Shown here: piece after piece, positions 9,996 through 27,039 of the stretch
Layout: each line of letters starts with the position of its first letter
Numbering within the stretch: position 1 is the first letter of the stretch
NCBI GenBank assembly: GCA_001793945.1
Contig: MGIW01000006.1
Span: 202,239-266,238 of the forward strand
DNA: 64,000 nucleotides
Reading direction: 5' to 3'
From: Candidatus Wolfebacteria bacterium RIFOXYD12_FULL_48_21
GTDB lineage: Bacteria; Patescibacteriota; Minisyncoccia; UBA6257; UBA9933
Notes under the pieces: generated by a model
The model's database searches: none
What the model saw: the letters and a program-made list of their open reading frames with translations, nothing else
Told to the model about the DNA's origin: nothing
Position numbers and translations under genes: made by a program

Positions 9996-10784
9996 ATGAC
10001 CACATACTACGGGGCATATATTAAAAAAATGCGTGAGCGGGCGAATCTTTCGCAAGATTTTGTTGCAAAGAAGATTGGCGTCTCCCGCCCGACGATCACT
10101 CAAATAGAAAAAGATGAGCGCGAATTAACGCTTGCAGAAGCACAAGGGCTCGCCGATTTGTTTGATATGCGGATAGAAGAGTTTTTGGCGAAAAAGGATG
10201 CTTCAGAGCCCATTGTTGTTCTATCAAAAGCGGCGGTAAAAAAGAAAGAGGACAAGGCAGATATTCGCATCAATGTCCCACAAAAGAACCTCAAGAAATT
10301 CAAGGAGGTGCTTTTGTATGTGCTCGAGAAGGTCGGCGCAAAGCCCAACATTGGGGAAACGGCAATTTATAAATTGCTCTATTTCATCGATTTTGATTTT
10401 TATGAGAAATATGAGGAGCAGTTGATCGGAGCAACATATATCAAAAACAATTACGGTCCTACGCCCGTTGAATTCGCCAAGATAGTTGAAGATATGGAGG
10501 CAAAGGGCGAGCTGGAGCGCATCAAGAGCAAATACTTTGATTACGAACAGAAGAAGTATCTTCCTCGGCGTTCGTCCGATCTTGCCGTATTATCGGCACT
10601 CGAGATCTCTCATATCGATGATGTCTTGAATCGATTGTCAGACAAGAGCGCAAAGGAATTAAGCGATTACTCGCACGGAGATGTTCCTTGGGCTATCGCG
10701 GAAGATAAAAAAGTGATCAGTTACGAGAGCGTGTTCTATCGGGATAAAAACTATTCGGTGAGAAGTTACGACGATGAACTTTGA
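9996..10784 (+). CDS. HTH (XRE) + Panacea/DUF4065 domain protein (SocA/PanA-type antitoxin)
   Basis: N-terminal HTH (LSQDFVAKKIGVSRPTITQIEKDER); C-terminal KLLYFIDFDFYEKYEEQLIGATYIKNNYGPTPVEF typical of DUF4065. Confidence 0.6.
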   Translation: MTTYYGAYIKKMRERANLSQDFVAKKIGVSRPTITQIEKDERELTLAEAQGLADLFDMRIEEFLAKKDASEPIVVLSKAAVKKKEDKADIRINVPQKNLKKFKEVLLYVLEKVGAKPNIGETAIYKLLYFIDFDFYEKYEEQLIGATYIKNNYGPTPVEFAKIVEDMEAKGELERIKSKYFDYEQKKYLPRRSSDLAVLSALEISHIDDVLNRLSDKSAKELSDYSHGDVPWAIAEDKKVISYESVFYRDKNYSVRSYDDEL

Positions 10785-11103
10785 TATAACGCATGGCTTC
10801 GAGCGCGATTGTAAACGACTGGCCAAGCGGTATCGTTCACTCGAGGAAGACATTGGCGAATTAAAGAAGGTGCTTGCGTTATTCCCGGCCGGAAACGGAA
10901 AGCATTTTGCGACCCTTGTTGAAACGGATATGGTTAAGATTATTAAAGCGCGTTTGTTTTGCCGGTACTTGAAAGGATCTTCATTGCGCGTTATCTATGC
11001 CTATAACGAAGAAGCGGAACAAATCAATTTTATCGAGTTGTATTTTAAGGGCGATCAAGAAACGGAAAATGAAGCGAGAATCAAAGCATATCTAAAGGGA
11101 TAA
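10774..11103 (+). CDS. putative toxin partner of the Panacea antitoxin (RelE/ParE-like fold suspected)
   Basis: 109-aa ORF overlapping the antitoxin stop by 11 nt; ...RVIYAYNEEAEQINFIELYFKGDQ resembles RelE-superfamily C-terminus. Confidence 0.4.
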   Translation: MNFDITHGFERDCKRLAKRYRSLEEDIGELKKVLALFPAGNGKHFATLVETDMVKIIKARLFCRYLKGSSLRVIYAYNEEAEQINFIELYFKGDQETENEARIKAYLKG

Positions 11104-11104: not shown

Positions 11105-11300
11105 CCCTTGTTGTCATTCCGAGTGAAGCCGTACTCGGCGCAACCGAGGAATCTGTAGTAGTTACCATGTTATTAACATAATCCATGACCCAAAGGTTGT
11201 CATTCCGGACTTGCCTCGCGCTGAGCTTGTCGAAGTGATCCGGAATCCAGAGCCTGTGTCATTCCGGCGGAGGCCGGAATCCAGATTTACTATTTTTTAC
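11105..11300. repeat. cluster of MITE-like hairpin units (gtcattcc...ggaatccag family)
   Basis: ttgtcattccgagtgaagccgtactcggcgcaaccgaggaatctg; gtcattccggacttgcc...atccggaatccag; gtcattccggcggaggccggaatccag. Confidence 0.7.
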
Positions 11301-11313
11301 TGCTAAACCACCC

Positions 11314-11339
11314 ATGACCCAAGACGAAGCATTTGCAAT
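11314..11339 (+). repeat. direct repeat copy of the first 26 nt of the helicase gene (atgacccaagacgaagcatttgcaat)
   Basis: Identical to 12170-12195; ~20 nt upstream also similar. Confidence 0.8.
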
Positions 11340-11393
11340 TTTGTACGAGTAATAAACTCGATACTCTGTATCAGATATTATATAATAAAGCTT

Positions 11394-11879
11394 ATGGTGA
11401 ATAATTATGCGTTTATTGATAGCCAAAATCTGAATCTTGCAATTAAAGACCAAGGATGGAATCTTGATTTTGAACGGTTCAGGATTTATTTAAAAGACAA
11501 ATATAGTGTGACAAAGGCGTTTATTTTTATTGGATATATACCAACGAATCAGCCTCTTTATACGGCTTTACAAAAATATGGATATATATTGGTATTCAAA
11601 CCTACGCTTGAATTGCCTGATGGTAGAGTGAAGGGGAATGTTGATGCCGAAATGGTATTGCATACCATGATCGAATATTCGAATTATGAAAAAGCATTAA
11701 TTGTGACGGGGGATGGTGATTTTTATTGTCTAGTGGATCACTTAAAAAACAATGGGAAATTAGCCGGAGTAATGATACCCAATGGGAAGAAATATTCTTC
11801 ATTGCTCAGAACATTTACTGGAGATACTATTTTTATGAATAATCTCAAGGAGAAGTTGGGATATAATAAAAATATGTAA
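11394..11879 (+). CDS. NYN-domain (LabA/PIN-like) ribonuclease family protein
   Basis: AFIDSQNLNLAI...VDAEMVLHTM...ALIVTGDGDF has the acidic-residue pattern of NYN/LabA domains. Confidence 0.7.
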   Translation: MVNNYAFIDSQNLNLAIKDQGWNLDFERFRIYLKDKYSVTKAFIFIGYIPTNQPLYTALQKYGYILVFKPTLELPDGRVKGNVDAEMVLHTMIEYSNYEKALIVTGDGDFYCLVDHLKNNGKLAGVMIPNGKKYSSLLRTFTGDTIFMNNLKEKLGYNKNM

Positions 11880-12009
11880 AAAAAGAGGCATAGCCGCGGG
11901 ACGGAACCCTTTGGTTAGCCTCTCATCGTGATAGTTAAAGTATAACAATTGGTCAATATATGTCAATATAAATCAATCCCGCACCTGCGGGATTTATGCT
12001 ATTATAGGT

Positions 12010-12140
12010 ACACATTTATGACCCTCGCATTGTCATTCCCGTCCTTCGACAAGCTTAGGATAAAACTTCGAGCGGGAATCCAGAGCCTGTGTCATTCCGA
12101 GCGGAGTGGTACTCCATGTAGTCGAGGAATCTGCAGTATT
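12010..12140. repeat. MITE-like hairpin units
   Basis: cattgtcattcccgtccttcgacaagcttaggataaaacttcgagcgggaatccagagcctgtgtcattccgagcggagtggtactccatgtagtcgaggaatctgcag. Confidence 0.7.
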
Positions 12141-12169
12141 CGTAATTTTTACTACAAACCTTATTACCT

Positions 12170-13894
12170 ATGACCCAAGACGAAGCATTTGCAATCTTAA
12201 AGACCGGACGAAATGTGTTTTTGACAGGAGAGCCGGGGAGTGGCAAGTCCCACATGGTCAATCGCTATGTGGAGTATTTGCGGTCCTGCGGGGTTGAACC
12301 GTCCATTACAGCGTCCACGGGCATTGCCGCCACGCACATCGGCGGCATGACGATCCACTCGTGGAGCGGCATCGGGGTACGGACCCGGCTGACCGACCAC
12401 GACCTTGAATTGATGCTCGACAAGGACCGGCTGGTCAAGCGGCTTCGGGCCGCGCGGGTGTTGATCATCGATGAAGTTTCCATGCTTTCGGGCGACACAC
12501 TGGCGGTGGTGGAGCAGGTTTGTCGCGTCTTGCGCGACTCCATAGAGCCCTTTGGAGGGCTTCAGGTGGTCCTGGTGGGCGACTTTTTTCAACTGCCGCC
12601 CATTATGCCAAAAGCCGACCAAGAGCGTGTAAAAACGATTTCTCTCGATGGGGAAGATCAGTGGTCACCCTTTGCATTCATGGGTACGGCGTGGGCAAAA
12701 GCGGACCCGACCATCTGCTATCTGACCGAACAGCATCGGCAGGAAGACACAGAGTTTTTAAAGGCACTTTCGGCCATCCGTCGCGGGGAGGTTACCGACG
12801 AGGTGCGCGAATGTTTTGCGGGCCGGCGTGTGGAGCCCGCCGTTGCGGACGATCATACCAAACTATATACGCACAATTTCGCGGTCGATAAGCTCAACGA
12901 TGCGCGGCTCGCAAAACTGCCGGGCGAGCGGCGCGACTTCGCGATGAAGAGCGAAGGCGCCCCGACGATCGTGGAGGGGTTGAAGCGTGGATGCTTGTCG
13001 CCCGAAACACTTTCGTTGAAATTGGGGGCGAAGGTCATGTTCACCAAAAACAGCGTCGAGGGAAAGTTCGTCAACGGCACCATCGGCGAGGTGGTCGGAT
13101 TTTCGCCCGTTACGGGCTATCCGCAGATCACGATGCACAACGGCAAGACGATCGAACCCGAGTTGGGCGAATGGAGTATCTATGACGGCATGAAGATGCT
13201 TGGCATGATCAAACAAATTCCGCTTCGCCTTGCCTGGGCCATCACGGTCCACAAGAGCCAAGGCATGTCGCTCGATACTGCAATCATGGATCTTTCACAA
13301 GCGTTTGAATACGGACAGGGGTATGTCGCGCTATCACGCGTGCGTACGCTCGCGGGGTTATATCTGTTGGGGTATAACGAACGGGCACTCGAAGTGCATC
13401 CCGATGTGTTTGCGAAGGATATCCAGTTCCGCGCCGCGTCCGAAAAGGCCCGGTATGACTTCGCCGCACTCGGCGAAGAACAAATCGCCGATCTGCAACT
13501 GCAGTTCATCAACACCATCGGCGGAGCCGTGGGCATGGGCATGCAGGCGCCTGCGCCCAAGGTTTCGACCTACGACGCAACGGCCGAGCTGGTCGCGCAG
13601 AAATTGTCGGTTGCCGACATGGCAGAAAAGCGTGGCGTAACCGAAGCCACGATCATCACGCATTTAGAAAAGCTGGTTGCCAATGGAACCCTCGATCCTG
13701 CAGCCGATTTGGAATACCTAAAGCCCGAACGCCGCCGGTTCGTGACCATGCAGGCAGCACTCGAAAAGACCTATAAAAAGAAGGGGAGCATGCTATTAAC
13801 CCCCGCCCAGTCCCTCCTCGGCCCCGGGTTTACCTTTGAGGAATTGCGGGTTGCGAGGCTGTTTTTGGGGAAAACCGAAGATCCGTCATCCTGA
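12170..13894 (+). CDS. Pif1/RecD2-family ATP-dependent DNA helicase with C-terminal HTH_40-type domain
   Basis: Walker A GEPGSGKSH, Walker B LIIDEVSML, motif QHRQ; C-terminal LSVADMAEKRGVTEATIITHLEKLV helix-turn-helix module. Confidence 0.75.
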   Translation: MTQDEAFAILKTGRNVFLTGEPGSGKSHMVNRYVEYLRSCGVEPSITASTGIAATHIGGMTIHSWSGIGVRTRLTDHDLELMLDKDRLVKRLRAARVLIIDEVSMLSGDTLAVVEQVCRVLRDSIEPFGGLQVVLVGDFFQLPPIMPKADQERVKTISLDGEDQWSPFAFMGTAWAKADPTICYLTEQHRQEDTEFLKALSAIRRGEVTDEVRECFAGRRVEPAVADDHTKLYTHNFAVDKLNDARLAKLPGERRDFAMKSEGAPTIVEGLKRGCLSPETLSLKLGAKVMFTKNSVEGKFVNGTIGEVVGFSPVTGYPQITMHNGKTIEPELGEWSIYDGMKMLGMIKQIPLRLAWAITVHKSQGMSLDTAIMDLSQAFEYGQGYVALSRVRTLAGLYLLGYNERALEVHPDVFAKDIQFRAASEKARYDFAALGEEQIADLQLQFINTIGGAVGMGMQAPAPKVSTYDATAELVAQKLSVADMAEKRGVTEATIITHLEKLVANGTLDPAADLEYLKPERRRFVTMQAALEKTYKKKGSMLLTPAQSLLGPGFTFEELRVARLFLGKTEDPSS

Positions 13895-14170
13895 ACTTGT
13901 TTCAGGATCTGGGCGGGGGTCATTCCCGCGAAGGCGGGAATCCAGTATCCCCGCATTGTCATTCCGGCCTCCGAGCCGGAATCCAGTATTTGTGTCATTC
14001 CCGTGAAAACGGGAATCCAGTATCCCCGTATTGTCATACCGGCCCGTTCGACAGGCTCAGGGTAAAACTCCGGCCGGTATCCAGCGCATTGTCATTCCTG
14101 CAAAAGCAGGAATCTACTTCGCATTTTTCGCATTGTCATTCCGGCCTCCGAGCCGGAATCCATCCCCACT
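13895..14170. repeat. tandem array of about seven MITE-like hairpin units
   Basis: Units gtcattcc-[cgcgaaggcg / ggcctccgagcc / cgtgaaaacg / tgcaaaagca]-ggaatccag separated by tatccccgcatt-like linkers; preceded by tcatcctgaacttgtttcaggat hairpin. Confidence 0.8.
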
Positions 14171-14291
14171 CCATAACCGTGAAAACATGCCATTGTACGG
14201 CCACTTTTCACGGTTATGGACGCAAAACCGTGAATGATCGTTTTCGTGACGTTAGTAAAATGGTTGATGCTTTCCAATCCCTCGTACTAAC

Positions 14292-14321
14292 TTGACAGTT
14301 TATTCATGTGTACGCTATTAT
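14292..14321 (+). promoter_or_regulatory. sigma-70-like promoter TTGACA-18-TATTAT upstream of Phd/RelE pair
   Basis: TTGACA 14292-14297, TATTAT 14316-14321, overlapping gtac...gtac palindrome. Confidence 0.5.
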
Positions 14322-14327
14322 GTACAT

Positions 14328-14687
14328 ATGGATAGCAAGACAACAATTTCAATTTCCGAAGCACGGAAGAAAATATTCGATATTGCCACCGAGGTACAGG
14401 CTCCCGGTAAGCACTATACATTAACTGAAAAAGGCCGACCAAAGGCGGTTATTATGTCTGCCGAAGAGTTTGAATCGTGGACGGAGACCATGGAAATCAT
14501 GCGTGAATTTCCTGACATTAAAAAAGATATTGCCCGTGCCGAGCGGGAATATAAGAGTGGTAATTATATAACCCTTGAAGATCTCTTGGAAAAAGAGGGG
14601 TATGTGTTAGCGGGTAAGACATCTAAAAACTATGCAGTATCGGATCATTCTGCCAAAAAGCGTACAAAAGGAGCTCGAAAAGCTTGA
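14328..14687 (+). CDS. Phd/YefM-family antitoxin
   Basis: ISISEARKKIFDIATEV...HYTLTEKGRPKAVIMSAEEFESWTETMEI is the Phd/YefM fold; unusually long C-terminal extension overlapping the toxin start. Confidence 0.6.
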   Translation: MDSKTTISISEARKKIFDIATEVQAPGKHYTLTEKGRPKAVIMSAEEFESWTETMEIMREFPDIKKDIARAEREYKSGNYITLEDLLEKEGYVLAGKTSKNYAVSDHSAKKRTKGARKA

Positions 14688-14883
14688 TAAGAAGATTAGA
14701 ATGCGGGTGATTGTAACCTTGCAGGAATTAAGCAAAGATCCTTTTGCCGGGAAAAAGTTGCAAGGAGAACACGCAGGCCAGTGGTCGGTACGCGCATGGC
14801 CATATCGGGTCATCTACAGGATAAACAAAGGCGAGCTCGTTGTACTTGTTATTCGCATCGCTCATCGGCAAGGAGCGTATTAA
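14632..14883 (+). CDS. RelE/ParE-family toxin
   Basis: MQYRIILPKSVQKELEKL...YRVIYRINKGELVVLVIRIAHRQ. Confidence 0.65.
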   Translation: MQYRIILPKSVQKELEKLDKKIRMRVIVTLQELSKDPFAGKKLQGEHAGQWSVRAWPYRVIYRINKGELVVLVIRIAHRQGAY

Positions 14884-15150
14884 AAACCCCCCCGCATTGT
14901 CATTCCCGCCCATTCGTCCGCCGGCTGGCGGATCAGGGTAAACTCCGGCGGGAATCCGTGGCCTGTGTCATTCCCGTGAAAACGGGAATCCAGTATCCCC
15001 GCATTGTCATCCCGTGCTCCGACACGGGATCCAGATCATGTGTCATTCCCGTGAAAACGGGAATCCAGTATCCCCGCATTGTCATTCCGGACTTGATCCG
15101 GAATCCAGTATTTGTGTCATTCCCGTGAAAACGGGAATCCAGAGTAGAGG
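14884..15150. repeat. tandem array of MITE-like hairpin units
   Basis: gtcattcccgtgaaaacgggaatccagtatccccgcattgtcat... repeated; includes ccgccggctggcgg core hairpin. Confidence 0.8.
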
Positions 15151-15199
15151 GGAAAATGGTACCCGACCCCTTTAATGACAACAAATTATTTCTAATGCA

Positions 15200-15275
15200 A
15201 ACAGATAAGATCCCTCATCCCTGCGGGATTTTTGGTTGGTTTATAAATGGGGTGGGATTTGGTAAGATTGAGTTG
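15200..15275 (+). promoter_or_regulatory. conserved terminator+leader module (copy b): atccctgcgggatttttggttggtttataaatggggtgggatttggtaagattgagttg
   Basis: Hairpin atccc-tgc-gggat plus T-run, followed by a conserved 40-nt tail; related copies at 19725-19770, 20345-20400, 21265-21325 and a partial one at 11965-11995. Confidence 0.6.
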
Positions 15276-15299
15276 TAGTTGAGGTAGTGACGCGTTAAT

Positions 15300-15653
15300 A
15301 TGGAGAAAATCAAAGCACTTACGCAGAAAATTGTTGCATTTCGAGACGAGCGGGATTGGAAGCAATTTCATAACCCCAAAGACGAGGCGTTGTCTTTGGT
15401 TTTGGAAGCAGCTGAAGTTATGGAGCATTTTCAATGGAAATCCGCCGAAGAAATGCAAAAACATGTCACGGATCAAAAGGAGGAAATCGGAGCAGAGCTT
15501 GCAGATGTCTTTTACTGGGTTTTATTAATGAGTCATGATCTCGACATCAATATCGCAGACGCGCTGGAGAACAAAATTAAGAAAAATGCCGAGAAGTATC
15601 CTGTTGAAAAGTCAAAAGGTAGCCATGCAAAATATATCAGGATAGAAAGCTAA
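15300..15653 (+). CDS. MazG-like nucleotide pyrophosphohydrolase (short single-domain form)
   Basis: LTQKIVAFRDERDWKQFHNPKDEALSLVLEAAEVMEHFQWK...ELADVFYWVLLMSHDLDINI...ENKIKKNAEKYP matches the MazG/NTP-PPase fold. Confidence 0.7.
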   Translation: MEKIKALTQKIVAFRDERDWKQFHNPKDEALSLVLEAAEVMEHFQWKSAEEMQKHVTDQKEEIGAELADVFYWVLLMSHDLDINIADALENKIKKNAEKYPVEKSKGSHAKYIRIES

Positions 15654-15670
15654 TAATATTATTGTGATCC

Positions 15671-16462
15671 ATGCCGAGAGAAATTATCATAACAGCAGAA
15701 TACTTTAAGCAATATCGCCGACGGTTGGGGTTTGCCACTCAGGCCGGAGTTAAAAATTTTTTCGGAGCAAAGGACATCGTTCCAGGCGTAGATTTTGATT
15801 ATGTGCAGTATTTAAACGATAGACTTTACGAGATCATTGATCGTATAAATGATGCGTTAGTTGATAGTATAAAGGTTGACAATGTGGACACATTCAAGCG
15901 GGAGCATGTCGATAGGGTTTTTGAAATAATAAAAGATAATAATATTTTGCCCGTATTGAATAATCAAGGAAGGAGACCCGAGGATGTGTACTTCTCTTGG
16001 ATGAGGGGATATGTTATTTCAAATTTATTTTTAAGGGCACTGGAAAGCATATTCGGTGTCGATGCATCGACCATTGAGCTCATCGGCGACGATGATTTGC
16101 GAAGCGTGGAAACTTTTAAGCGAACGCCAAAAGCCGACTTGGAGATTAATCTCGGGGAAAGGGGGCGAATACGAATAGAAATGCAATCGGGCTTTACAGG
16201 AATCAACGACATTAAGCAACATAAAGTCCTTGAGGCAAAAAGAGTTTTTAGTGATATGGGCGTTCATACATTGGCGGTTCATTTTGACCTGTATAACGGC
16301 CAAGCCGCCTTTGTGATGCTCGATGATGTCAGTGAAGATGATGTAAATTGGATTACAAGGCAACAAATGGAGGGACAAACTGTTTTTAACATAGATCAAA
16401 ATAAATTTATCTGGAAGATTACCGAAGATCCGATCAGGTATGCAGACATAATTTTCGAGTAA
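15671..16462 (+). CDS. hypothetical protein, candidate type II restriction endonuclease partnering the C5 methyltransferase
   Basis: 263-aa ORF ending 10 nt before the MTase start; no known motif; call rests on context. Confidence 0.3.
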   Translation: MPREIIITAEYFKQYRRRLGFATQAGVKNFFGAKDIVPGVDFDYVQYLNDRLYEIIDRINDALVDSIKVDNVDTFKREHVDRVFEIIKDNNILPVLNNQGRRPEDVYFSWMRGYVISNLFLRALESIFGVDASTIELIGDDDLRSVETFKRTPKADLEINLGERGRIRIEMQSGFTGINDIKQHKVLEAKRVFSDMGVHTLAVHFDLYNGQAAFVMLDDVSEDDVNWITRQQMEGQTVFNIDQNKFIWKITEDPIRYADIIFE

Positions 16463-16471
16463 GATTTAACC

Positions 16472-17596
16472 ATGGGAAAGATTAAAGTTGTTGATTTATT
16501 TGCGGGAGTGGGGGGATTGAGCTATGGTTTTGCACATGACCCCCATTTTGAAATTGTTGCAGCAAATGAGATATTGCCGAATATGGCAAAGGCTTATTCT
16601 CTGAACCACCCTGGCGTGCGGGTTTACGCCGAGGACATCAAGGATTTTAGTGCAAAAAAAATAGAAAAAGATTTAAAAATAAAACCCTCCGAGATTGATA
16701 TTATCGTGGGCGGCCCCCCTTGTCAGGCCTATTCGACCGTCGGGAAAAGGCTTATTGGCGATCCTCGAGGGCAACTTTTTCAAGAATATTATCGAGTGCT
16801 GAAGGAATTTAATCCAAAGCTTTTTATCTTTGAAAATGTAAAAGGTCTTTTGTCGATGCAAAACGGTGAATTGTTAAAAGCAATCATTGTCTTATTCGAA
16901 TCACTCGGTTACAGGGTTCAGTATAGAGTTTTAAATGCTGCGGATTACGGAGCGCCGCAAATAAGGGAACGGATTATTATTGTCGGATCAAAATTAAAAT
17001 CCGATTTTATATATCCCAAGCAAACCCATTGTGATCCCGTTCGATTGATGGGATTAGCGGGCGCATCTTTAAAGCCTTACCTAACACTTGGAGAGGCTAT
17101 TGGCGATTTGCCTTTTATGAGAAGCGGGGCGGAGAGCTTTGAGTATGCATCGGATCCGCAGAGTGATTTTCAGAGACTTATGCGAAAAGGTTCTCCCGAC
17201 AGGCTGATGGACCATTGCGCGCCAAATAATAATGCTAAGCTGGTTAACATGATGGAGCTTTTGCCCGATGGAGGTACGCCGGAAGATTTGCCCGAGCACT
17301 TGCGGCCGACATCGGGTTTTAAAAATACCTATTGCCGCTTATGGTGGAAAAGGCCTTCGACGACAATAACTAGGAATTTAAGTACACCCTCTTCGTCGAG
17401 GTGTATTCATCCAAAAGCGCCCCGACCTTTGACGACAAGAGAGGGTGCGAGACTCCAATGCTTTCCCGACTCCTATCAATTTTTTGGTTCTCGCAGCGAT
17501 AGAAATCTTCAAATTGGGAATGCGGTCCCAACTTTTTTGGCGAGCGCTATAGCCGCAGCGATTTTAAAAAATTTTAAAGCCGAAGAGCTCATTTAA
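16472..17596 (+). CDS. DNA (cytosine-5)-methyltransferase
   Basis: Motif I DLFAGVGGLSYGF, motif IV GGPPCQAYS, motif VI ENVKGL, motif X-like GNAVP. Confidence 0.9.
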   Translation: MGKIKVVDLFAGVGGLSYGFAHDPHFEIVAANEILPNMAKAYSLNHPGVRVYAEDIKDFSAKKIEKDLKIKPSEIDIIVGGPPCQAYSTVGKRLIGDPRGQLFQEYYRVLKEFNPKLFIFENVKGLLSMQNGELLKAIIVLFESLGYRVQYRVLNAADYGAPQIRERIIIVGSKLKSDFIYPKQTHCDPVRLMGLAGASLKPYLTLGEAIGDLPFMRSGAESFEYASDPQSDFQRLMRKGSPDRLMDHCAPNNNAKLVNMMELLPDGGTPEDLPEHLRPTSGFKNTYCRLWWKRPSTTITRNLSTPSSSRCIHPKAPRPLTTREGARLQCFPDSYQFFGSRSDRNLQIGNAVPTFLASAIAAAILKNFKAEELI

Positions 17597-17717
17597 AAAT
17601 AGACGGATATTTTCTCCAAGGAAAACCGCAGCGAGATATTGGCTGTAGTAAAGGGGAAGGGAAATATGACCACCGAGATTGCCCTGATAAAAATTCTGCG
17701 GGAGGAGAAAATAACCG

Positions 17718-17987
17718 GTTACCGACATGGCAGAAAAGCGTGGCGTAACCGAAACCACGATCATCGCCCATTTGGAAAAGCTGGTTGCCAATGGAACCCT
17801 CGATCCTGCAGCCGATTTGGAATACCTAAAGCCCGAACGCCGACGATTTGTAACTATGCAAGCCGCGCTTGAAAAGACCTACAAAAAGAAGGGGAGCATG
17901 CTATTAACCCCCGCCCAGGCACTCCTTGGGCCTAGTTTTACATTTGAGGAGTTGAGGGTGGCACGGTTGTTTTTAATTACCCCGTGA
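17718..17987 (+). pseudogene. duplicated 3' fragment of the Pif1-like helicase gene (HTH_40 tail), displaced copy
   Basis: MAEKRGVTETTIIAHLEKLVANGTLDPAADLEYLKPERRRFVTMQAALEKTYKKKGSMLLTPAQALLGPSFTFEELRVARLFL is about 95% identical to helicase residues encoded at 13611-13880; lacks the helicase core. Confidence 0.75.
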
Positions 17988-18077
17988 TGAGCGGAGCAGA
18001 TTTTATGGGAGGAGAAAGAGTGGATGAGTTTTTTGAAAATACCTTTTAGCATATTTAGGTAGTTTAACAGCACCTAT

Positions 18078-18110
18078 TGACACCATTATTCATGGTGTTA
18101 TTATTAGTAT
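18078..18110 (+). promoter_or_regulatory. candidate promoter TTGACA-18-TATTAG with caccattattcatggtg palindrome
   Basis: cctattgacaccattattcatggtgttattattagtatgc just upstream of the first small HTH gene. Confidence 0.4.
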
Positions 18111-18145
18111 GCAAGTTAAAAGAAATACTTAATAAAAATAAACAC

Positions 18146-18391
18146 ATGGAAAAATCTGAGGGACTATCTGAACTTAAAGAGCTTAACAAGAAGATTGAGG
18201 TAGTGATTGCTCTGCTTCTTAAAATGTTACCTAAAGATAATCAGGGAATTTCACTTAAAGATCAAATTAAATTGTTGGATAGTCTCCATATTCGGCCAAG
18301 TGAAATAGCTGAAATTATCGGACGAACTCAGAGCTATGTGAGTAAAGAGCTTGTGTACATCCGAAAGGATAAAAAACAAAAAATTAACTAA
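18146..18391 (+). CDS. small HTH protein, paralog 1 of 4
   Basis: MEKSEGLSELKELNKKIEVVIALLL...SEIAEIIGRTQSYVSKEL (sigma-70 region 4 / LuxR-like HTH pattern). Confidence 0.5.
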   Translation: MEKSEGLSELKELNKKIEVVIALLLKMLPKDNQGISLKDQIKLLDSLHIRPSEIAEIIGRTQSYVSKELVYIRKDKKQKIN

Positions 18392-18403
18392 TAATATATC
18401 TAT

Positions 18404-18619
18404 ATGAGTGAAAATGAAATTTTGTCATCAGTGTCAAAAAAGCTAGGAGTTTTAATTGCTTTGAATTTGATGACGCTTAATAGCAAGGCAACTGTAATTG
18501 ACAATGTTGCTCTACTTGATCGTTTTGGTTTATCTACTACTGAAATTTCGGAAATATTAAATACCTCTAAAGGTACGGTCGATGTTACGAAAAGTAGAAT
18601 TAAAAAAGGAAAAAAATAA
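18404..18619 (+). CDS. small HTH protein, paralog 2 of 4
   Basis: ...LGVLIALNLMTLNSKATVIDNVALLDRFGLSTTEISEILNTSKGTV. Confidence 0.5.
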   Translation: MSENEILSSVSKKLGVLIALNLMTLNSKATVIDNVALLDRFGLSTTEISEILNTSKGTVDVTKSRIKKGKK

Positions 18620-18623
18620 TAAT

Positions 18624-18806
18624 ATGGAAAGTAAAGAACTTATTAAAGAGTTAAAATCTTTAAATAAAACAATAAAAGATCAGTTCATCTTCCTTTTATG
18701 CCGAGAAGGTTATACTAAAGAACAAATTAGGATAATTATCGGAAGTATTGATAATACTAGGATAACCCAGATTAGTTCTGGGCTTAAAAAAATAAATAAA
18801 AAATAA
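18624..18806 (+). CDS. small HTH protein, paralog 3 of 4
   Basis: MESKELIKELKSLNKTIKDQFIFLLCREGYTKEQIRIIIGSIDNTRITQISSGL. Confidence 0.45.
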   Translation: MESKELIKELKSLNKTIKDQFIFLLCREGYTKEQIRIIIGSIDNTRITQISSGLKKINKK

Positions 18807-18808
18807 TC

Positions 18809-18979
18809 ATGACGAAACAGAAAGAGCAAAAGTTGGATACTTTGGAACAGATCAAGCGACTACTCATTCTTGCCCTAGTGCATCAAGGTGTCCAAGGGAA
18901 GGATGTTGCTGCGGTGCTCGGCGTTGATCCGGCGGTTGTCAGCCGTATGGTTCCAACTCGGCAAATAAAGAAGAAATAA
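18809..18979 (+). CDS. small HTH protein, paralog 4 of 4 (56 aa, below ORF-track cutoff)
   Basis: Own translation: MTKQKEQKLDTLEQIKRLLILALVHQGVQGKDVAAVLGVDPAVVSRMVPTRQIKKK; same architecture as the other three. Confidence 0.45.
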   Translation: MTKQKEQKLDTLEQIKRLLILALVHQGVQGKDVAAVLGVDPAVVSRMVPTRQIKKK

Positions 18980-18983
18980 TGAT

Positions 18984-19709
18984 ATGGCCCGCCCTCGCAT
19001 CCTTGATTTAAAACTAATGGTAAAAATTGCCAAAAAACTTGGCAAAAAGGATACTATTTCTATAAATAAGATGGTAAGTAGAAAAGCATCAAAACTTGGC
19101 ATATCTGCCGAGTCGGCTTTGATACTTTTAGCGAAGGAGTATGGGATAGGTGCATCTACATATCAGCGTAATCTTGGTGTTACGAAACAAGCGGAGGTGC
19201 GAGATGCATTGCCATCTATTTTTATACAAGCGCGGGCGATGAGTCATGAGAATAAGACAAAAAATAATAGCGAGGTAAAACCGTCTATTAGTAAAAAAAC
19301 AGCACTGAAGCTTACAATAGAGTATTTAATCGAGGATCAGGAATTACGAAGTAGATGTCAGGATATTCTTATGGCTTCTGCAAATTTTGATAGACCTATT
19401 AACCAAGCAACTTTAGTACTTGAGGATAGAATAAGGAAAAAAGCAAAACCTCTTACGAAAATGGTTGGGGAAAATTTAGTGGGGTATGCTTTTAATGAAG
19501 AAATTTCCAAAACAGTTCTTCGCGTTGCGAGTAATGATGCTGATGATCAGCGTGGATTTGCACAAATTTTGAGAGGTATTGTACCTGCATTTCGAAATAA
19601 AACACATCATCATATTGTTGAACATTTTTCTAGAGAAGAGGCAATCAGAGTTTGTGGGTTTATCGATGTTTTGTTACGAGTTGTAGATAATTCTGTAAAA
19701 ATAAAATAA
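18984..19709 (+). CDS. hypothetical protein with C-terminal CHP02391 (Hypoth_Ymh)-like domain
   Basis: C-terminal ...GFAQILRGIVPAFRNKTHHHIVEHFSREEAIRVCGFIDVLLRVV resembles the TIGR02391 family seen in defence contexts; assignment tentative. Confidence 0.35.
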   Translation: MARPRILDLKLMVKIAKKLGKKDTISINKMVSRKASKLGISAESALILLAKEYGIGASTYQRNLGVTKQAEVRDALPSIFIQARAMSHENKTKNNSEVKPSISKKTALKLTIEYLIEDQELRSRCQDILMASANFDRPINQATLVLEDRIRKKAKPLTKMVGENLVGYAFNEEISKTVLRVASNDADDQRGFAQILRGIVPAFRNKTHHHIVEHFSREEAIRVCGFIDVLLRVVDNSVKIK

Positions 19710-19779
19710 GCTTAATAGTCACTCCTGCGGGATTTTTGGTTGGTTTCTAAATAAGGTGGAATTTGGTAAAATTTTAAAA

Positions 19780-20280
19780 ATGCCGTATAAAGATCCAGCA
19801 AAATTTAAGGAGTTAAATTTTTTGTTTAAAGAAATAATAGACCGGATTATGATCGCTGATATCTTGCGATTAAAAGAACTTGACCCACTATTAAGATTTC
19901 ATGGTTCCGAATATTATGGTGGACGCGGGACGACTCCCATGGTTCTTTATATTTTTGTTTGCATGGAATTTTTGGGTTCTTTAATAATGGAAGTTGAAGC
20001 TAAGGGTTCCGGTAGTACACAGAAAAAAGTTTTGGCGTATATGGAGATGACTTTTGGTCCCGATATGGATTTGTTTATTACACACAGAAGGTTGTTTATT
20101 AAATTTTATCGCAACGCATTAGCTCACGGATTTTTTCCTGGAGGAGGGGGTATAAGTCGGGGCGGCTCGCAAGTATTAGGAGTAACAGCGAGAGGGGATT
20201 TAATTCTTGACGCTGATATTTTGCAGATATGTTTGTTAGGTCGGTGTGGCGTTTTAAACGGCTATTTCGTTCTCGGATAG
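19780..20280 (+). CDS. hypothetical protein
   Basis: ORF preceded by conserved module copy c; the ORF-track start at 19756 is a GTG inside the module, so the ATG at 19780 is used; no motif recognised. Confidence 0.35.
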   Translation: MPYKDPAKFKELNFLFKEIIDRIMIADILRLKELDPLLRFHGSEYYGGRGTTPMVLYIFVCMEFLGSLIMEVEAKGSGSTQKKVLAYMEMTFGPDMDLFITHRRLFIKFYRNALAHGFFPGGGGISRGGSQVLGVTARGDLILDADILQICLLGRCGVLNGYFVLG

Positions 20281-20420
20281 GCTTGACTACATATCCTTAT
20301 TTGGTAAATCAAGTTGTCGATAGATTTTTAAAAATACAGCAGAGATAACCCTGATCCTTTATAATTTATAAATGGGTCAGAATTTGGTAAGATTGAGTTG
20401 AAATGGGGTGTAATTATTAA

Positions 20421-21257
20421 ATGGAGAATACAATCGTGGAAATGTTAATACCGCATAATGATCCGAATGGACTTCGGATTATTAAGCTTGCTGGGTGGAT
20501 CGGAAGGGCATTTGTTATTCCTCGTGCAGATATTAAAGAGATAAAAGCATTAAAGGAGGCGAGTCATCCTGCTGTGTATTTTCTTATTGGAGAAGAGGAT
20601 GGTAAGGCAACTGTTTACATAGGACAAACTGATAATTTTGAGCGTCGACTTAATCAGCAGGTGGTAGCAAAAAATTATTGGGATATCGCCATGGTATTTA
20701 CCGGCGAATTGGATATTGATGTTCAATATTTAGAATATATTTGCACAAAAGAAGCAAGAGAGTCTGGTAGATATGAAATAAAAAATGCAACAGGAACGCC
20801 TGGGCGGAATATATCTGATTTTCAACGAGTTGCGAATAATAAGTTTTTTGAAAATATAAAGTTCGTTGTCTCATTGTTAAGTTACCCGATTTTCCAGGAA
20901 GTTCCGAAGGAGCAGCAGGCTGATAAAATCTATCACCTTAAACTTTCGAGGAGTAATGATGTTTTAGGAAGGGGTGCACTGCTTTCAAGCGGTGAGTTTG
21001 TAGTATACGCAGGATCTATGGCTCGAATAGTCGAAGCAAAAAGCTTTCAGGGAAGGAAGGGGTCTGGGCTTCGCAAACAACTTATCGATGAAGGTGTTTT
21101 GCAGAATCAAGATGGTATTTCTTATATTTTTACAAAAGATTATATTTTTGGAAGTCCAAGCGCAGCTGGTTATGTTATCACTGGTATGTCGACAAATGGG
21201 TGGACGAGCTGGAAAGACAAGAATGGAAAGACCCTCGATGAGAATGTGAGGAAATAA
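20421..21257 (+). CDS. GIY-YIG nuclease domain + DUF4357 protein
   Basis: PAVYFLIGEEDGKATVYIGQTDNFERRLNQ (GIY-YIG); C-terminal YIFTKDYIFGSPSAAGYVITGMSTNGWTSWKDKNGKTL (DUF4357-like). Confidence 0.65.
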   Translation: MENTIVEMLIPHNDPNGLRIIKLAGWIGRAFVIPRADIKEIKALKEASHPAVYFLIGEEDGKATVYIGQTDNFERRLNQQVVAKNYWDIAMVFTGELDIDVQYLEYICTKEARESGRYEIKNATGTPGRNISDFQRVANNKFFENIKFVVSLLSYPIFQEVPKEQQADKIYHLKLSRSNDVLGRGALLSSGEFVVYAGSMARIVEAKSFQGRKGSGLRKQLIDEGVLQNQDGISYIFTKDYIFGSPSAAGYVITGMSTNGWTSWKDKNGKTLDENVRK

Positions 21258-21363
21258 CTTGTAAAAATCCCGCATTCCTGCGTGATTTTTAGTTGGTTTA
21301 TAAATAGGGTGGAATTTGGTAAGCTTGGGAGTAATAAAGGTTACCCATGAAATTATTGGAATT

Positions 21364-23763
21364 ATGAGTCTCTACGAGAAATTACAAAAAGCTACGAGTG
21401 AAGAGGATGTTAAAGATATCTATATAAAAGCACTTGGGCTAAAGGAATATCAGAAAAATCTTATAGATATTCAAACGAAAGAAGTTTGGTTCGAAGCCAA
21501 GCAGAATTCTAAGCTGTCGACTTATGCCATGTTCACCCAGCTACTGCATTATGTGCAGGAGGCACTGGATAAGGGAGGATATGTTCCTCCATTTTTGGCC
21601 GTAATTGATACGCAAAAGGCAGCTATAATGAAAAGTGTCGATATTATTCCCTTTCTCGAAAAGAAAACTATTAAGTGGGGCAAGTCAGCAAGTAGTTATA
21701 CACAGGAAGCTCTCGATATTGTATCTGCGTATATTGGCACGCACTTTGTTTCTTTTAAGATTGAAACGCACGAGGAAGAATTTATACAAGCAATTAAAGG
21801 CGCTATTAAAAATGGCGATATTATTAGAACTCAAATTACCCCAGACAATTTAAAACAAGTTTTCGATAAGTGGGTACAGATGATCGGGCGAGAAATAAGG
21901 GATGTTAAAGAGGAGGATTATGTGCTGCTATTTTTTGCTGATATTATGCATGACGGTACTGTTTCTACGCATAATGATCTTCCTGCAGAGTTATTACACA
22001 AAAATAATGCTCCGGTATTTAGTCTGGGCGGGAAAATTTATGAACTCGGAAATAAAGAAGGTTATCGACAATTCTGGGCAATTTATCACAAACCGCCAAA
22101 AGCAGAATATCGCGATTATTTATTAGAACGGAGAGACAGTCTAATCCCAATTGATGAAAGAAGTTTTAAAGGTGCCTATTACACACCGCTCCAAGTGGTG
22201 GATAAGGCTTATGATAAACTTCTAGAAACCTTAGGAGATAATTGGCAAAAAGAGTATATCGTATGGGATATGTGTTGTGGCGTTGGAAATTTAGAGGTTA
22301 AACATAGTAATCCTCGCAATATTTACATGTCTACATTAGACAGTGAAGATGTGGATGTGATGAAAGCTACTAAAACCTGCGTAGCGGCGCAGCGGTTTCA
22401 ATACGATTATTTGAATGATGATATTGCTGATGATGGTAAAATAGATTACACACTAACTAATAAAGTGCCTGAAGGTTTACGCAAGGCTATTGCTGACGGC
22501 AAAAAGATTTTAGTGCTGATCAATCCGCCATATGCGGAAGCTATGAGTGCTGATAATATATCAAATAATGAAAAGGCGGAAAGTAAGTTAGGCGTTTCTA
22601 AGACTCGGGTTGCGTCAATAATGGATACTCAGGGTTATGCAACTAGGGAGTTATTCGTGCAATTTCTCGTGAGATTATCGCTTGAGATACCAAGTGCTAC
22701 CTTGGCGATGTTTAGCAAATTAAAATATGTAAATGCCCCTAATTTTGAGAAATTTAGAGAAACCTGGAATGCGAAATATAAGGGTGGTTTTATCGTGCAC
22801 AGCAAGGCTTTTGATGGATTAAAGGGTGATTTCCCAATTGGCTTTTTAGTGTGGCAAACAGATCAAAATGCAAAAGTGAAAACACCGATAATTGAATTAG
22901 TGGCTGAAGTGCTGGATAAAAATGCTAATCCAATTGGGGAGAAATATTTTTATAATCTATCAAACGACAAGCTTCTTGGAGATTGGATAAAAAGACCCAA
23001 AGCAAATAAGATCGATGTTGTGCCATTAAAAAATACAGTTACTCCAGCTACGGTTAGTAAAGATTTACGAGGAACAAAATGGTCCGATAATGCAATTGGT
23101 TGCATGATTTTTCAGGGTAGTGATGTTCAACATTCAAAAACAACCGCAATACTGTCCTCGGGTTTTGGTAGTGCGGGGAGTATATTTATCAATCCGGAAA
23201 ATCTTTGGCAAGCCTCGATCATTTTTGCTGTTCGCCGTCTCATTAAGCCTACTTGGGTGAACGATCGGGATCAATTTTTGCAACCAACAGAACCACTTAC
23301 CGATGAGTTTAAAAATGATTGTCTTGTATGGATGCTTTTTAATGGAAGTAATCTTACCGCCAGCGCAAATGATCTCGAGTGGAATGGTAAGAAATGGTCA
23401 ATTGTTAATCATTTTATCCCGTATACCGAGGAAGATGTAAACGCTCCAGAACGCTTTGAATCAGATTTTATGGTGCGGTATTTAGCTGGTAAGCAGTTCT
23501 CGCCTGAAGCGGTCGCAGTATTGAGAGAAGGAAAGTTGTTGTGGCAAGCATATTTTGCGAATACAGACACCAGAACGGTTCGAGATGAATTGATGTTGAA
23601 TCGTCCTGATGTGGGGTGGTATCAAATCAGAAAAGCGATCCAAGCGCGAAATGCGATTAGTGATTCTTCTCCAGTTAGTTTAGAATCTTTTGAAAAGGAG
23701 TACGGCGCTTTAACCGAAAAGCTAAAACCTCAAGTATATGCGTTAGGATTTTTAAAAATCTAA
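21364..23763 (+). CDS. Type IIG restriction-modification enzyme (MmeI-like: N-terminal PD-ExK nuclease + gamma-class N6-adenine MTase + target-recognition domain)
   Basis: N-terminal D-x8-E-A-K (LIDIQTKEVWFEAKQ) like the MmeI catalytic triad; MTase motif IV VLINPPYAEA; large C-terminal region. Confidence 0.7.
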   Translation: MSLYEKLQKATSEEDVKDIYIKALGLKEYQKNLIDIQTKEVWFEAKQNSKLSTYAMFTQLLHYVQEALDKGGYVPPFLAVIDTQKAAIMKSVDIIPFLEKKTIKWGKSASSYTQEALDIVSAYIGTHFVSFKIETHEEEFIQAIKGAIKNGDIIRTQITPDNLKQVFDKWVQMIGREIRDVKEEDYVLLFFADIMHDGTVSTHNDLPAELLHKNNAPVFSLGGKIYELGNKEGYRQFWAIYHKPPKAEYRDYLLERRDSLIPIDERSFKGAYYTPLQVVDKAYDKLLETLGDNWQKEYIVWDMCCGVGNLEVKHSNPRNIYMSTLDSEDVDVMKATKTCVAAQRFQYDYLNDDIADDGKIDYTLTNKVPEGLRKAIADGKKILVLINPPYAEAMSADNISNNEKAESKLGVSKTRVASIMDTQGYATRELFVQFLVRLSLEIPSATLAMFSKLKYVNAPNFEKFRETWNAKYKGGFIVHSKAFDGLKGDFPIGFLVWQTDQNAKVKTPIIELVAEVLDKNANPIGEKYFYNLSNDKLLGDWIKRPKANKIDVVPLKNTVTPATVSKDLRGTKWSDNAIGCMIFQGSDVQHSKTTAILSSGFGSAGSIFINPENLWQASIIFAVRRLIKPTWVNDRDQFLQPTEPLTDEFKNDCLVWMLFNGSNLTASANDLEWNGKKWSIVNHFIPYTEEDVNAPERFESDFMVRYLAGKQFSPEAVAVLREGKLLWQAYFANTDTRTVRDELMLNRPDVGWYQIRKAIQARNAISDSSPVSLESFEKEYGALTEKLKPQVYALGFLKI

Positions 23764-23847
23764 TCATTTTAACCTTAGGAGGTGGTCGTGGTATTGCCAG
23801 AGATAATATAATTAACAAAGGAAATTGATAAAAATTAATATTTAATT

Positions 23848-24330: not shown

Positions 24331-24345
24331 TATTTGATATAAATA

Positions 24346-26418: not shown

Positions 26419-26445
26419 TATTTATAGTGTACGCAAGGAATTAAA

Positions 26446-27025: not shown

Positions 27026-27039
27026 TAGAGGGGATACGG

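Follow-up and report, generated by a model that had tools for sequence, protein, structure and literature searches.

Both ends of a Pif1-like helicase gene in a Rifle-aquifer (groundwater) Candidatus Wolfebacteria genome are repeated nearby, and the repeats are probably scars left by 'terminal displacement', a process that would act at a recombination hotspot beside the helicase, apparently without an integrase. Incoming DNA would bring a complete new gene end, keeping the helicase intact, and the resident end would be shoved outward as a dead stub. The locus is a clear instance of an already known type of recombination scar and not a new type of mobile element; what is new about terminal displacement at a helicase is the setting, its kind being ordinary. 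Positions are those of the window, the whole 64-kb stretch of DNA that was analysed, and the helicase, its displaced ends, the cassettes, the intervening module and spacer, the palindromic arrays and the low-GC cargo are all on the + strand. Assemblies made independently from different samples (L001, L003, L038 and L027, the last with ~4x coverage and with codons 1-190 resembling a non-Wolfebacteria allele) show the same arrangement, and it is therefore not an assembly artefact of the window contig. The comparison loci are from metagenome assemblies throughout, and assembly may have produced chimeras at shared sequence in L002 and L027.

Both ends of the helicase gene are duplicated

The intact helicase (574 aa, 12170-13894; Pfam PIF1, AAA_30 and HTH_40) has thousands of full-length homologues across Parcubacteria at 50-60% identity, and is a conserved chromosomal gene across related CPR (candidate phyla radiation) bacteria, lying between two variable regions. 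Its HTH_40-coding end, still attached to the gene (copy 1, 13608-13866), aligns without gaps to 17716-17974 at 230 of 259 nt (88.8%; BLAST E 2e-93), confirming the 3′ repeat described in a first-pass annotation of this DNA; the nucleotide identity of ~95% given there is in fact that of the protein (79/83 residues). Copy 2, the displaced 3′ end (17716-17987), consists of codons 481-566 followed by a private ending, ITP*. The differences between the tails are unevenly spread: the first 116 nt past the shared ATG contain 4 and the last 133 nt contain 25 (binomial P = 2e-4), and a block of 68 nt has no mismatch (13667-13734 and 17775-17842). The spacer that runs from the Dcm methylase stop to copy 2 (17597-17715) ends at a sharp junction, 17715/17716, and its similarity to the helicase is not significant (973 of 1000 shuffles scored at least as high as the observed alignment). 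At the border of copy 2, positions 17705-17715 hold a microhomology, CGGTTNCCGAC (10/11 match), which is suggestive, but not proof, of an illegitimate joint.

Upstream of the gene, helicase nt 1-29 (12170-12198) recur at 11314-11342 with 28 of 29 nt identical. This displaced 5′ end comprises leader sequence plus the first 29 nt of the ORF (11285-11342); it has an ATG at 11314 and reads MTQDEAFAILYE*, with the stop at 11352. Some 20 nt of the leader upstream of the helicase start are repeated with a small indel, and the pair of palindromic units that normally precedes the helicase (GTCATTCC...GGAATC) is also doubled, the distal copy located by pattern scan at 11199-11281 corresponding to 12032-12131 (~73% over 125 nt, E 1.5e-12). 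The proximal units and the leader of the intact helicase (12032-12169) are collinear with L023 9863-10000. The 5′ repeat reported earlier is thus real, and includes the leader and palindromic repeats.

Cargo between and beyond the repeats

The gene content first assigned to the intervals between the repeats was upheld by Pfam and, for the restriction endonuclease, by annotated homologues. On the 5′ side is an NYN-domain nuclease cassette (11343-11950; gene at 11394-11879, Pfam NYN 2.7e-14) with its own promoter-like site in a promoter scan (11358-11386). On the 3′ side, a Phd/YefM antitoxin gene (14328-14687) and a ParE-family toxin gene (14632-14883) form a cassette at 14292-14883 (Pfam PhdYeFM and ParE_toxin, RelE/ParE superfamily) that has a promoter-like site at 14292-14321 in the same scan and is shared with L023 at 95%. 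A hairpin and promoter-like module detected by nhmmer (15197-15298) is followed by a MazG-like gene (15300-15653; Pfam), the restriction endonuclease (263 aa, 15671-16462) and a Dcm methylase (C-5 DNA methylase by Pfam, 16472-17596). The module repeated between cassettes consists of a 5-bp hairpin and promoter-like sequence, and every cassette has a promoter-like site of its own, unlike copy 2. The lower-GC island annotated directly after copy 2 is present (GC 0.33-0.39 at 18-25 kb); it is older cargo (18046-24963), with four small HTH genes, Hypoth_Ymh, a DUF4357/PDC-S14 gene and an 815-aa protein, and extends up to a conserved TspO gene (24979-25560).

An integron consists of an intI integrase, an attI site and promoterless cassettes bounded by attC. 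The locus was rejected as an integron, as no integrase was found in the scanned ORFs, the cassettes have their own promoter-like sites and the inter-cassette module is not attC.

Palindromic units

The elements previously called MITEs are hairpins of 24-49 nt in head-to-tail arrays, with array 1 at 13885-14162 and array 2 at 14890-15142. Exact matches to ATTCCC(N8)GGGAAT, a pattern taken from PMC3898611, occur six times in the window compared with 0.00 expected, and a looser palindrome pattern occurs 18 times compared with 0.02 expected; 13 of these 18 units are within 11.1-15.2 kb, on either side of the helicase and around Phd/ParE. The units fit the description of dRS3/NIME-like or REP-like sequences, that is, short palindromes in intergenic arrays. 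They had no Rfam match, and neither a transposase gene nor a RAYT-like (REP-associated tyrosine transposase) gene was found in the window. Strictly defined, a MITE has the terminal inverted repeats of a parent transposon as well as target-site duplications; 'REP-like' is a safer label for the units than 'MITE'. The first, degenerate unit of array 1 (13885-13909) encodes the final helicase codons and the stop, and in L004 the helicase C-terminus is encoded by another palindromic unit. L038, which is otherwise 99.9% identical, does not have array 2, and Phd/ParE and MazG are contiguous there.

Related loci include empty sites on both sides

Comparison with related genomes, which had been proposed with the first reading, revealed empty sites at both ends of the helicase. 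Neither the NYN gene nor the 5′ stub is present in L023, L006 or L010, a different 140-aa gene being in the NYN place in L023, while the 5′ stub is found in L002 and L004. The 3′ stub is missing from L004, L005/L026, L028 and L029, in which other cargo lies between the helicase and TspO. This interval has different defence cargo in each Wolfebacteria locus examined: Dcm and a restriction endonuclease in the window, a D12 methyltransferase and EcoRI in L004, Mrr in L005/L026, an N6_N4 methyltransferase and MjaI in L028, and Vsr, Dcm and HATPase in L029. In L004 the small HTH genes directly follow the helicase, which matches the junction between copy 2 and the small HTH genes being the old one. 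A helicase ending in ...RLFLITP and followed directly by small HTH genes was absent among 20 close alleles, and no parental sequence, donor or recipient, was found.

In L031-L033, the end of Dcm, an identical 119-nt spacer and the identical junction are followed by a different tail allele (P0121, ending LYGS) and by different downstream cargo (Fic). Another, shorter and independent 3′ stub is present in L002, L023, L006 and L015; it starts at helicase nt 1603, compared with nt 1439 for copy 2 of the window. This stub retains its own stop, palindromic unit, linker and promoter module, followed in L023 by its own next gene, and is therefore an intact old gene end that has moved downstream. L002 is of window type on the left and of L023 type on the right, with the switch within the common Phd/ParE cassette.

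Origin of the duplicated ends

Between copy 1 and copy 2, dS is 0.59, dN is 0.024 and dN/dS is 0.04, and synonymous changes make up 24.5 of the 29 differences; the orthologous tails of other strains are equally diverged (dS 0.45-0.61). Dating by synonymous divergence, also suggested with the first reading, thereby showed the tails to be two lineages' alleles, which diverged as working genes under purifying selection, and not a local duplication. The tail alleles are visibly mosaic, and tail dS is up to ~6x that of the helicase body (window-L004, 0.51 vs 0.089; window-L023, 0.45 vs 0.28); together with the clustered differences between the copies and the 68-nt identical block, this marks the tail as a recombination-prone segment. 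Copying of the helicase or its ends in place, with decay of the copies and insertion of cassettes between them, was implicit in the first-pass annotation and would account for direct repeats near each other in the same orientation. Decay in place would, however, give a dN/dS near 1 and indels, and the distance between the copies equals that to other strains' tails, such that local duplication is largely refuted by the substitution pattern and is highly improbable. The low dN/dS of copy 2, part of which could be due to gene conversion by working alleles, is also what would be seen if copy 2 were a working small gene, either a stand-alone HTH_40 regulator of the restriction-modification cassette or a silent cassette for swapping the C-terminus. 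Copy 2 is called as an intact 86-aa ORF (17727-17987; Pfam HTH_40, 9e-9), and its HTH_40 score rises from 35.9 to 42.6 bits when a 1-nt repair joins it to an upstream ATG at 17666. Against this, of the two strains with the well-placed ATG at 17666 neither has it in frame, no ribosome-binding site was seen by eye upstream of 17727, the promoter scan gave no promoter-like site for copy 2, and the spacer lacks significant helicase similarity. No intact stand-alone homologue was present among 5.8 billion proteins, the restriction endonuclease-Dcm pair of a distant Patescibacterium (L039) is without such a gene, and, as the tails are 95% identical in protein, swapping would alter almost nothing; a function for copy 2 is very unlikely.

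The first-pass annotation had read the repeats as footprints of cargo insertion, by site-specific integration into a gene or by repeated MITE-mediated recombination. The footprints at both helicase ends stand, given the empty sites, whereas neither of the two routes is supported. In phage 21 and e14, which integrate in icd, and in islands that target tRNA genes, the element carries a replacement 3′ end for the target gene and the original end survives on the other side of the element, where it forms a direct repeat of ~80-90% identity. The 13.6-17.7 kb region could likewise be an integrative island with a replacement helicase 3′ end in its attachment site, and its inserter would be a tyrosine or serine recombinase, since lost or acting in trans, perhaps from elsewhere in the genome. 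As with phage 21 and e14, the gene is kept intact by the incoming 3′ end, direct repeats flank the cargo and relatives have empty sites; the 68-nt block without mismatch might be taken for a core, two strains have the same Dcm-tail junction, and in L039 a homologous restriction endonuclease-Dcm pair is near a large serine recombinase. Elements of the phage 21/e14 type, however, have an integrase and one fixed core, whereas the ORFs scanned in the 64-kb window (its large ORFs and the called genes of 2-24 kb) gave no integrase or recombinase Pfam domain, no tRNA gene is at the borders, and the second 3′ stub begins at nt 1603 and not 1439, although different elements could carry att sites of unequal length. 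Elements of the att type do not produce a mirror-image 5′ scar, and the cargo is a mosaic with parts that vary independently; site-specific integration is unlikely. It is quite improbable that insertion of the cassettes and duplication of the adjacent gene ends were the work of the palindromic arrays or of an enzyme that acts on such units. Such a role would fit the concentration of 13 of the 18 units around the helicase and Phd/ParE, the six matches to the dRS3 pattern and the polymorphism of the arrays among strains; in Neisseria, the Nf1 phage integrase is proposed to act on dRS3 repeats, and arrays of the dRS3 type are credited with promoting exchange at neighbouring loci (PMC3898611). The duplication junctions 11342/11343 and 17715/17716 are, however, neither in nor beside a unit, no transposase or RAYT-like gene turned up in the window, and the arrays vary independently of the cassettes, Phd/ParE and MazG being contiguous without an array in L038.

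Proposed mechanism of terminal displacement

In terminal displacement, new cargo would arrive as DNA from a related strain in which it is already beside the helicase. One homologous crossover inside the helicase would serve as the anchor, and the other end would be closed by an illegitimate joint; where a flanking repeat is already present, a second homologous crossover, in the tail, could close it instead. Alternatively, a circular [tail + cargo] molecule could enter through one crossover. With the outer joint lying within the end of the resident gene, the incoming DNA would have supplied a complete gene end. On the 3′ side, copy 1, Phd/ParE and MazG-REase-Dcm would have entered, and copy 2 would have remained joined to the older cargo with the small HTH genes; on the 5′ side, in a mirror-image event, the NYN cassette would have entered and left the 29-nt start stub. 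The stubs show that clean double crossovers do not explain the founding events at least. The helicase anchor, the illegitimate first joint, the directions of the events and DNA uptake (natural transformation, or conjugation) as the entry route in this uncultivated organism are what we infer; the mosaic tails, the raised tail dS and the switch inside Phd/ParE in L002 lend support to recombination.

Relationship to known systems

The published displacement models (PMC2935791, PMC5361080) have the same form as the terminal displacement proposed for the helicase. C-terminal displacement and orphan tips are described for rhs, and also for cdiA, mafB and fhaB (Jackson et al. 2009, PMC2935791); new rhs ends arrive on a core fragment and the old end is displaced downstream with its genes, through homologous recombination with a proposed circular intermediate (PMC2935791). 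The helicase locus works like such a C-terminal displacement array, in that loose 3′ fragments come after a full-length gene, still bearing conserved sequence and still followed by genes of their own. It is not a member of the Rhs/CdiA type because its tail is an HTH_40 domain, 95% identical, and not a polymorphic toxin: Rhs tips are polymorphic toxins with an immunity gene, whereas the displaced end here encodes conserved DNA-binding HTH_40 (dN/dS 0.04) and the locus varies in the cargo behind the end. The mirror-image 5′ scar and the CPR host are further differences from Rhs.

The locus also resembles the minimal mobile elements of Neisseria, whose cassettes are exchanged by homologous recombination and which occur together with NIME/dRS3 arrays (review PMC3898611), in having a site bounded by conserved genes, strain-specific whole-gene cassettes, no mobility genes, and arrays of ~20-bp palindromic ATTCCC(N8)GGGAAT units beside variable loci. 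Duplicated ends of flanking genes, as seen at the helicase locus, do not figure in descriptions of minimal mobile elements, and the Wolfebacteria host is phylogenetically very distant from Neisseria. Here, as in core defence hotspots between conserved genes such as the cDHS of Pseudomonas aeruginosa (PMC10250203), defence systems pile up at one fixed place in the chromosome with core genes on either side; the core-gene scars at both ends are a local detail of the helicase locus that goes unmentioned in the abstract of that paper. In Vibrio cholerae, homology-facilitated illegitimate recombination displaces T6SS effector-immunity modules one after another (Kirchberger et al. 2017, PMC5361080), and terminal displacement at the helicase would have in common with it a conserved upstream anchor, an illegitimate other joint, older modules pushed downstream and the absence of an integrase. 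The Vibrio loci keep a functional orphan immunity gene, whereas the helicase stub looks non-functional, and the cargo here consists of restriction-modification, toxin-antitoxin and other defence genes.

The helicase gene lies between two variable regions

The helicase gene (12170-13894, 574 aa) encodes a protein identical to that of Wolfebacteria RIFOXYD12_FULL_48_21, the Rifle aquifer Candidatus Wolfebacteria (Parcubacteria, candidate phyla radiation, CPR) from which the window derives. Pfam analysis identified PIF1, AAA_30 and C-terminal HTH_40 domains, and full-length homologues (PIF1 plus HTH_40, ~570 aa) with 50-60% identity are found Parcubacteria-wide; the helicase is a conserved chromosomal gene rather than cargo. 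In Wolfebacteria it is flanked by a variable region on either side. The content of the interval between the helicase and the conserved TspO gene (24979-25560) differs from locus to locus in every Wolfebacteria locus compared: the window carries Dcm and a restriction endonuclease, small HTH genes, Ymh, a DUF4357/PDC-S14 gene and a gene for an 815-aa protein, and the related loci carry a D12 methylase and EcoRI (L004), Mrr alone (L005/L026), an N6_N4 methylase, MjaI and a HEPN protein (L028), or Vsr, Dcm and HATPase (L029). The upstream side also varies between loci, and the remainder of the window is housekeeping (PheRS, IF-2, MreB, DnaK/J, UvrA/B). The ORFs scanned in the 64 kb contained no integrase or recombinase domain, no tRNA gene was found at the island borders, and an Rfam scan of 10.5-26 kb returned nothing relevant. 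The sole strong PADLOC match, DUF4357 as PDC-S14, is uninformative on the repeats.

At 9996-11103 an antitoxin-like gene with HTH_3 and SocA/Panacea domains overlaps a gene for a 109-aa protein without a family match; this pair is kept in L023 with 91% DNA identity, and is probably a further toxin-antitoxin pair at the edge of the 5′ variable region. Four consecutive small genes that look alike (18146-18979; 56-81 aa), with weak HTH or sigma-70 region 4 matches, adjoin the displaced helicase tail, have a near-consensus promoter upstream (18077-18104), and are also present in L004 with 78% DNA identity.

Both ends of the helicase gene are repeated, and empty sites exist in related genomes

The two repeats reported in the first-pass annotation are real. 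At the 3′ side, the attached tail (copy 1, 13608-13866) matches the displaced tail (copy 2) at 17716-17974 without a gap, with the qualification that the reported 95% is the protein identity; the nucleotide identity is 88.8% (230/259). At the 5′ side, a copy of nt 1-29 of the ORF (12170-12198) lies at 11314-11342 (28/29 nt), and the repeat also takes in the leader and the upstream pair of palindromic units. Gene content between the repeats is as described, with an NYN gene on the 5′ side, and Phd/ParE, MazG-like, restriction endonuclease and Dcm methylase genes on the 3′ side. The same arrangement was present in independent assemblies from other samples (L001, L003, L027, L038), and is therefore no assembly artefact. 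When all collected loci with a near-complete helicase gene were scanned against themselves, such displaced gene ends (stubs) were seen only in the Rifle clade, whose helicases are at least 95% identical, and stubs as a CPR-wide trait of this helicase were rejected on that basis.

Sites without the insertions, which the annotation had proposed looking for, are present in relatives on both the 5′ side (L023/L006/L010) and the 3′ side (L004, L005, L026, L028, L029), so the objection that related genomes might offer no empty site does not apply. L023, L006 and L010 (helicase 95% identical) are without the 5′ stub and NYN, and carry a different 140-aa gene between the SocA-type toxin-antitoxin pair and the pre-helicase palindromic units. 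In L004 (98% identical) the 5′ stub and NYN are present, Phd/ParE, MazG-REase-Dcm and copy 2 are missing, and the helicase leads through 2-3 palindromic units straight to the small HTH genes that in the window lie just past copy 2. The more distant Wolfebacteria L005, L026, L028 and L029 have no stubs.

The two tails are diverged alleles

Comparison of copy 1 with copy 2 over 83 shared codons gave 29 differences, 24.5 of them synonymous (dS 0.59, dN 0.024, dN/dS 0.04). This distance matches that between orthologous tails of other strains (dS 0.45-0.61). The substitution pattern is unlike decay after duplication in place, and on this sequence comparison the two tails are to be regarded as different alleles. 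The ending of copy 2, ITP*, is private, being absent from 20 related helicases.

Between strains the gene diverges most in its tail, with dS in tail and body of 0.51 vs 0.089 for window and L004, and 0.45 vs 0.28 for window and L023. Tail alleles are visibly mosaic, and the differences between copies 1 and 2, which share a 68-nt identical block, cluster towards the end of the repeat, where the last 133 nt hold 25 of them, against 4 in the first 116 nt (P = 2e-4). The mosaic alleles, raised tail dS and clustered differences therefore indicate that the tail has recombined repeatedly with diverged DNA. Beyond the conserved …RLFL, the helicase alleles all differ. In the window, the last codons and the stop come from a degenerate palindromic unit at 13885-13909 (GTCATCCTGAACTTGTTTCAGGATC), and in L004 another palindromic unit (2607-2647) gives a different, longer C-terminus (…SGACHSGLDPESR).

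The 3′ junction is shared by strains with different tails

The left end of copy 2 is sharp, and the 119-nt spacer between it and Dcm has no significant similarity to the helicase at the DNA or peptide level; a reading of the spacer as a diverged first HTH_40 helix was rejected for that reason. An HTH gene of the restriction-modification cassette as the source of the spacer likewise found no support, the REase-Dcm pair of L039 being followed by an unrelated 87-aa ORF. L031-L033 have the same Dcm end, spacer and junction as the window; the tail allele beyond is another one (P0121, ending LYGS*), and after it come a palindromic unit and a Fic gene. One junction is thus common to strains that differ in the rest of the tail and in the downstream genes. 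Both window junctions lie outside palindromic units and do not adjoin them.

A second type of 3′ stub, starting at helicase nt 1603, was found in L002/L023/L006/L015. It still ends in its own stop codon and has kept its palindromic unit, a short linker motif and the promoter-like module in front of the next gene, and is an intact old gene end displaced ~3 kb downstream by other cargo. At L023 14854-14875, just 5′ of this short stub, is a 13-nt exact match (ACGGCCGAGCTGG) to helicase nt ~1411-1423, with a score reached in 2/1000 shuffles; the L023 stub may therefore be a longer remnant that starts near the start of copy 2 and has lost 173 nt from its interior.

Origin of the displaced gene ends

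Terminal displacement is the simplest account of the helicase scars, and we consider it somewhat probable. The donor would be DNA of a related strain in which cargo already adjoined the helicase; one crossover would occur within the helicase, and the outer end of the incoming DNA would join inside the end of the resident gene. The complete incoming end would preserve helicase function, and the resident end would stay as a stub past the new cargo. The founding outer joint would be illegitimate, as in homology-facilitated illegitimate recombination. In later transfers the tail copies would serve as homology, via two crossovers or an excised circle, which would account for the occurrence of one junction with different tail alleles. 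The 5′ stub would be the mirror image of the 3′ event and is older than the split between the window lineage and L004. Neither the donor nor the recipient sequence was found, and the predicted recipient allele, a helicase ending …LFLITP, did not occur among 20 close alleles. Models proposed for Rhs C-terminal displacement (PMC2935791) and for the T6SS effector-immunity arrays of Vibrio cholerae (PMC5361080) follow the same logic, and the overall setting resembles Neisseria minimal mobile elements and NIME repeat arrays (PMC3898611). The usual gene for such scars is a polymorphic toxin, whereas here it is a conserved helicase.

The annotation had read the repeats as footprints of insertion, and footprints they are; the agents that it named fare less well. 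Site-specific integration is unlikely, requiring an integrase that is absent from the scanned ORFs of the window and leaving the 5′ mirror scar and the unequal stub boundaries unexplained. Joining through the palindromic arrays is more doubtful still, given the positions of the junctions outside the units and the independent variation of arrays and cassettes (L038 is without array 2, at 14890-15142 in the window), although the arrays may raise the rate of exchange. The picture of local duplication is the least probable reading, as the substitution pattern of the tails argues against it.

It is also very improbable that copy 2 is a functional gene. A 1-nt repair lifts its Pfam score slightly, which would be in keeping with a complete but diverged HTH_40 gene that has a start codon of its own. 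This candidate was rejected: the spacer has no significant similarity to the helicase, the ATG upstream of copy 2 is not in frame with it in either of the two strains that carry this codon, and no intact stand-alone homologue was found among 5.8 billion proteins. In addition, copy 2 has no promoter-like site, inspection by eye showed no ribosome-binding site, and its protein differs little from the attached tail.

The sequences compared all come from metagenome assemblies, and the main argument rests on neither of two loci, L002 and L027. L002 agrees with the window (99.9% identity) as far as the ParE stop and with L023 (99.7-100%) from mid-Phd on, switching strain type within the shared Phd/ParE cassette (L002 12156-12500, window 14325-14670; window-type left, L023-type right); it could be either a true recombinant or a chimeric scaffold. 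In L027 the first 190 helicase codons (353-920) are ~55-70% identical in DNA to the window and closest to non-Wolfebacteria Parcubacteria alleles (70% protein identity), and from window position 12723 through the entire cargo the identity is 100%. L027 was set aside as proof of a crossover within the helicase because its coverage is ~4x and the first third of its helicase foreign; like L002, it could be a true recombinant or a chimeric contig.

Cassette turnover at the helicase

The locus gives a sequence-level picture of the turnover of defence and toxin-antitoxin genes in a small-genome, uncultivated CPR bacterium, which appears to proceed via recombination anchored in a conserved neighbour gene rather than via integrases or transposons. 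More tentatively, cargo bracketed by tails could carry a built-in pair of homology arms, by which relatives with an intact helicase could acquire the whole defence block through homologous recombination or a circle and single crossover; cassettes might thus spread through a CPR population in an integrase-free, self-targeting manner, with the helicase tail as landing pad and the promoter module and arrays as further exchange points. Stubs mark relative age: cargo beside the gene is newer, cargo beyond the stub is older, and the order of acquisition can be reconstructed from them. The 86-aa ‘HTH_40’ and 74-aa ORFs in public records are remnants of gene ends, not genes. As a recombination scar the locus is of a known kind, clean and two-sided, with an unusual host and an unusual gene, and is not categorically new; it opens no new class of mobile element and answers no long-standing question.

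Palindromic units and other repeats

The ‘MITEs’ of the first-pass annotation, including the arrays at 13885-14162 and 14890-15142, are 24-49 nt hairpin units (GTCATTCC...GGAATC) with stems that vary between units yet stay self-complementary. The window contains 18 (0.02 expected), 13 of which cluster around the helicase (11113-15139), all on the + strand; the others include those at 2067, 7072, 30102 and 36198. Six units have the exact Neisseria dRS3 pattern ATTCCC(N8)GGGAAT, and no Rfam family was found for the hairpin units as a whole.

Unrelated genes are preceded by a conserved module of 60-100 nt, in which a small hairpin (ATCCCTGCGGGAT) comes before a promoter-like sequence (TTGGTTTATAAATGGGGTGGRATTTGGTAAGATTGAG); in the window it lies at 15197-15298, 19706-19803, 20337-20424 and 21255-21352 (+ strand), with 5 copies in L002/L023, 3 in L004, 2 in L028 and 1 in L029. 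It is confined to the helicase-TspO island, is always on the + strand, and is 85-93% identical even between Wolfebacteria with helicases ~20% apart in DNA; its role may be that of a portable promoter or of a point of exchange between cassettes. A short linker motif, GGTACCYGACCCCWTTA, is found repeatedly 5′ of this module, after a palindromic array or the ParE stop (window 15158-15177; L004 ~2740; L038 ~925; L023 ~15085). A 51-nt imperfect palindrome at 14170-14220 (CCATAACCGTGAAAA…TTTTCACGGTTATGG), 5′ of the Phd/ParE promoter, may be an operator. Beyond TspO, a 45-nt perfect palindrome (AAAAAYGCTTAATAWTATTGCTATAGCAATATTATTAAGCGTTTT) at 25704-25748 and 26443-26487 flanks a PaaX_M-domain gene, with the same layout in L004, and a G-rich tandem repeat tract of GGTATAG / GGAGAG-type units (27010-27193) lies 3′ of an S24 peptidase gene.
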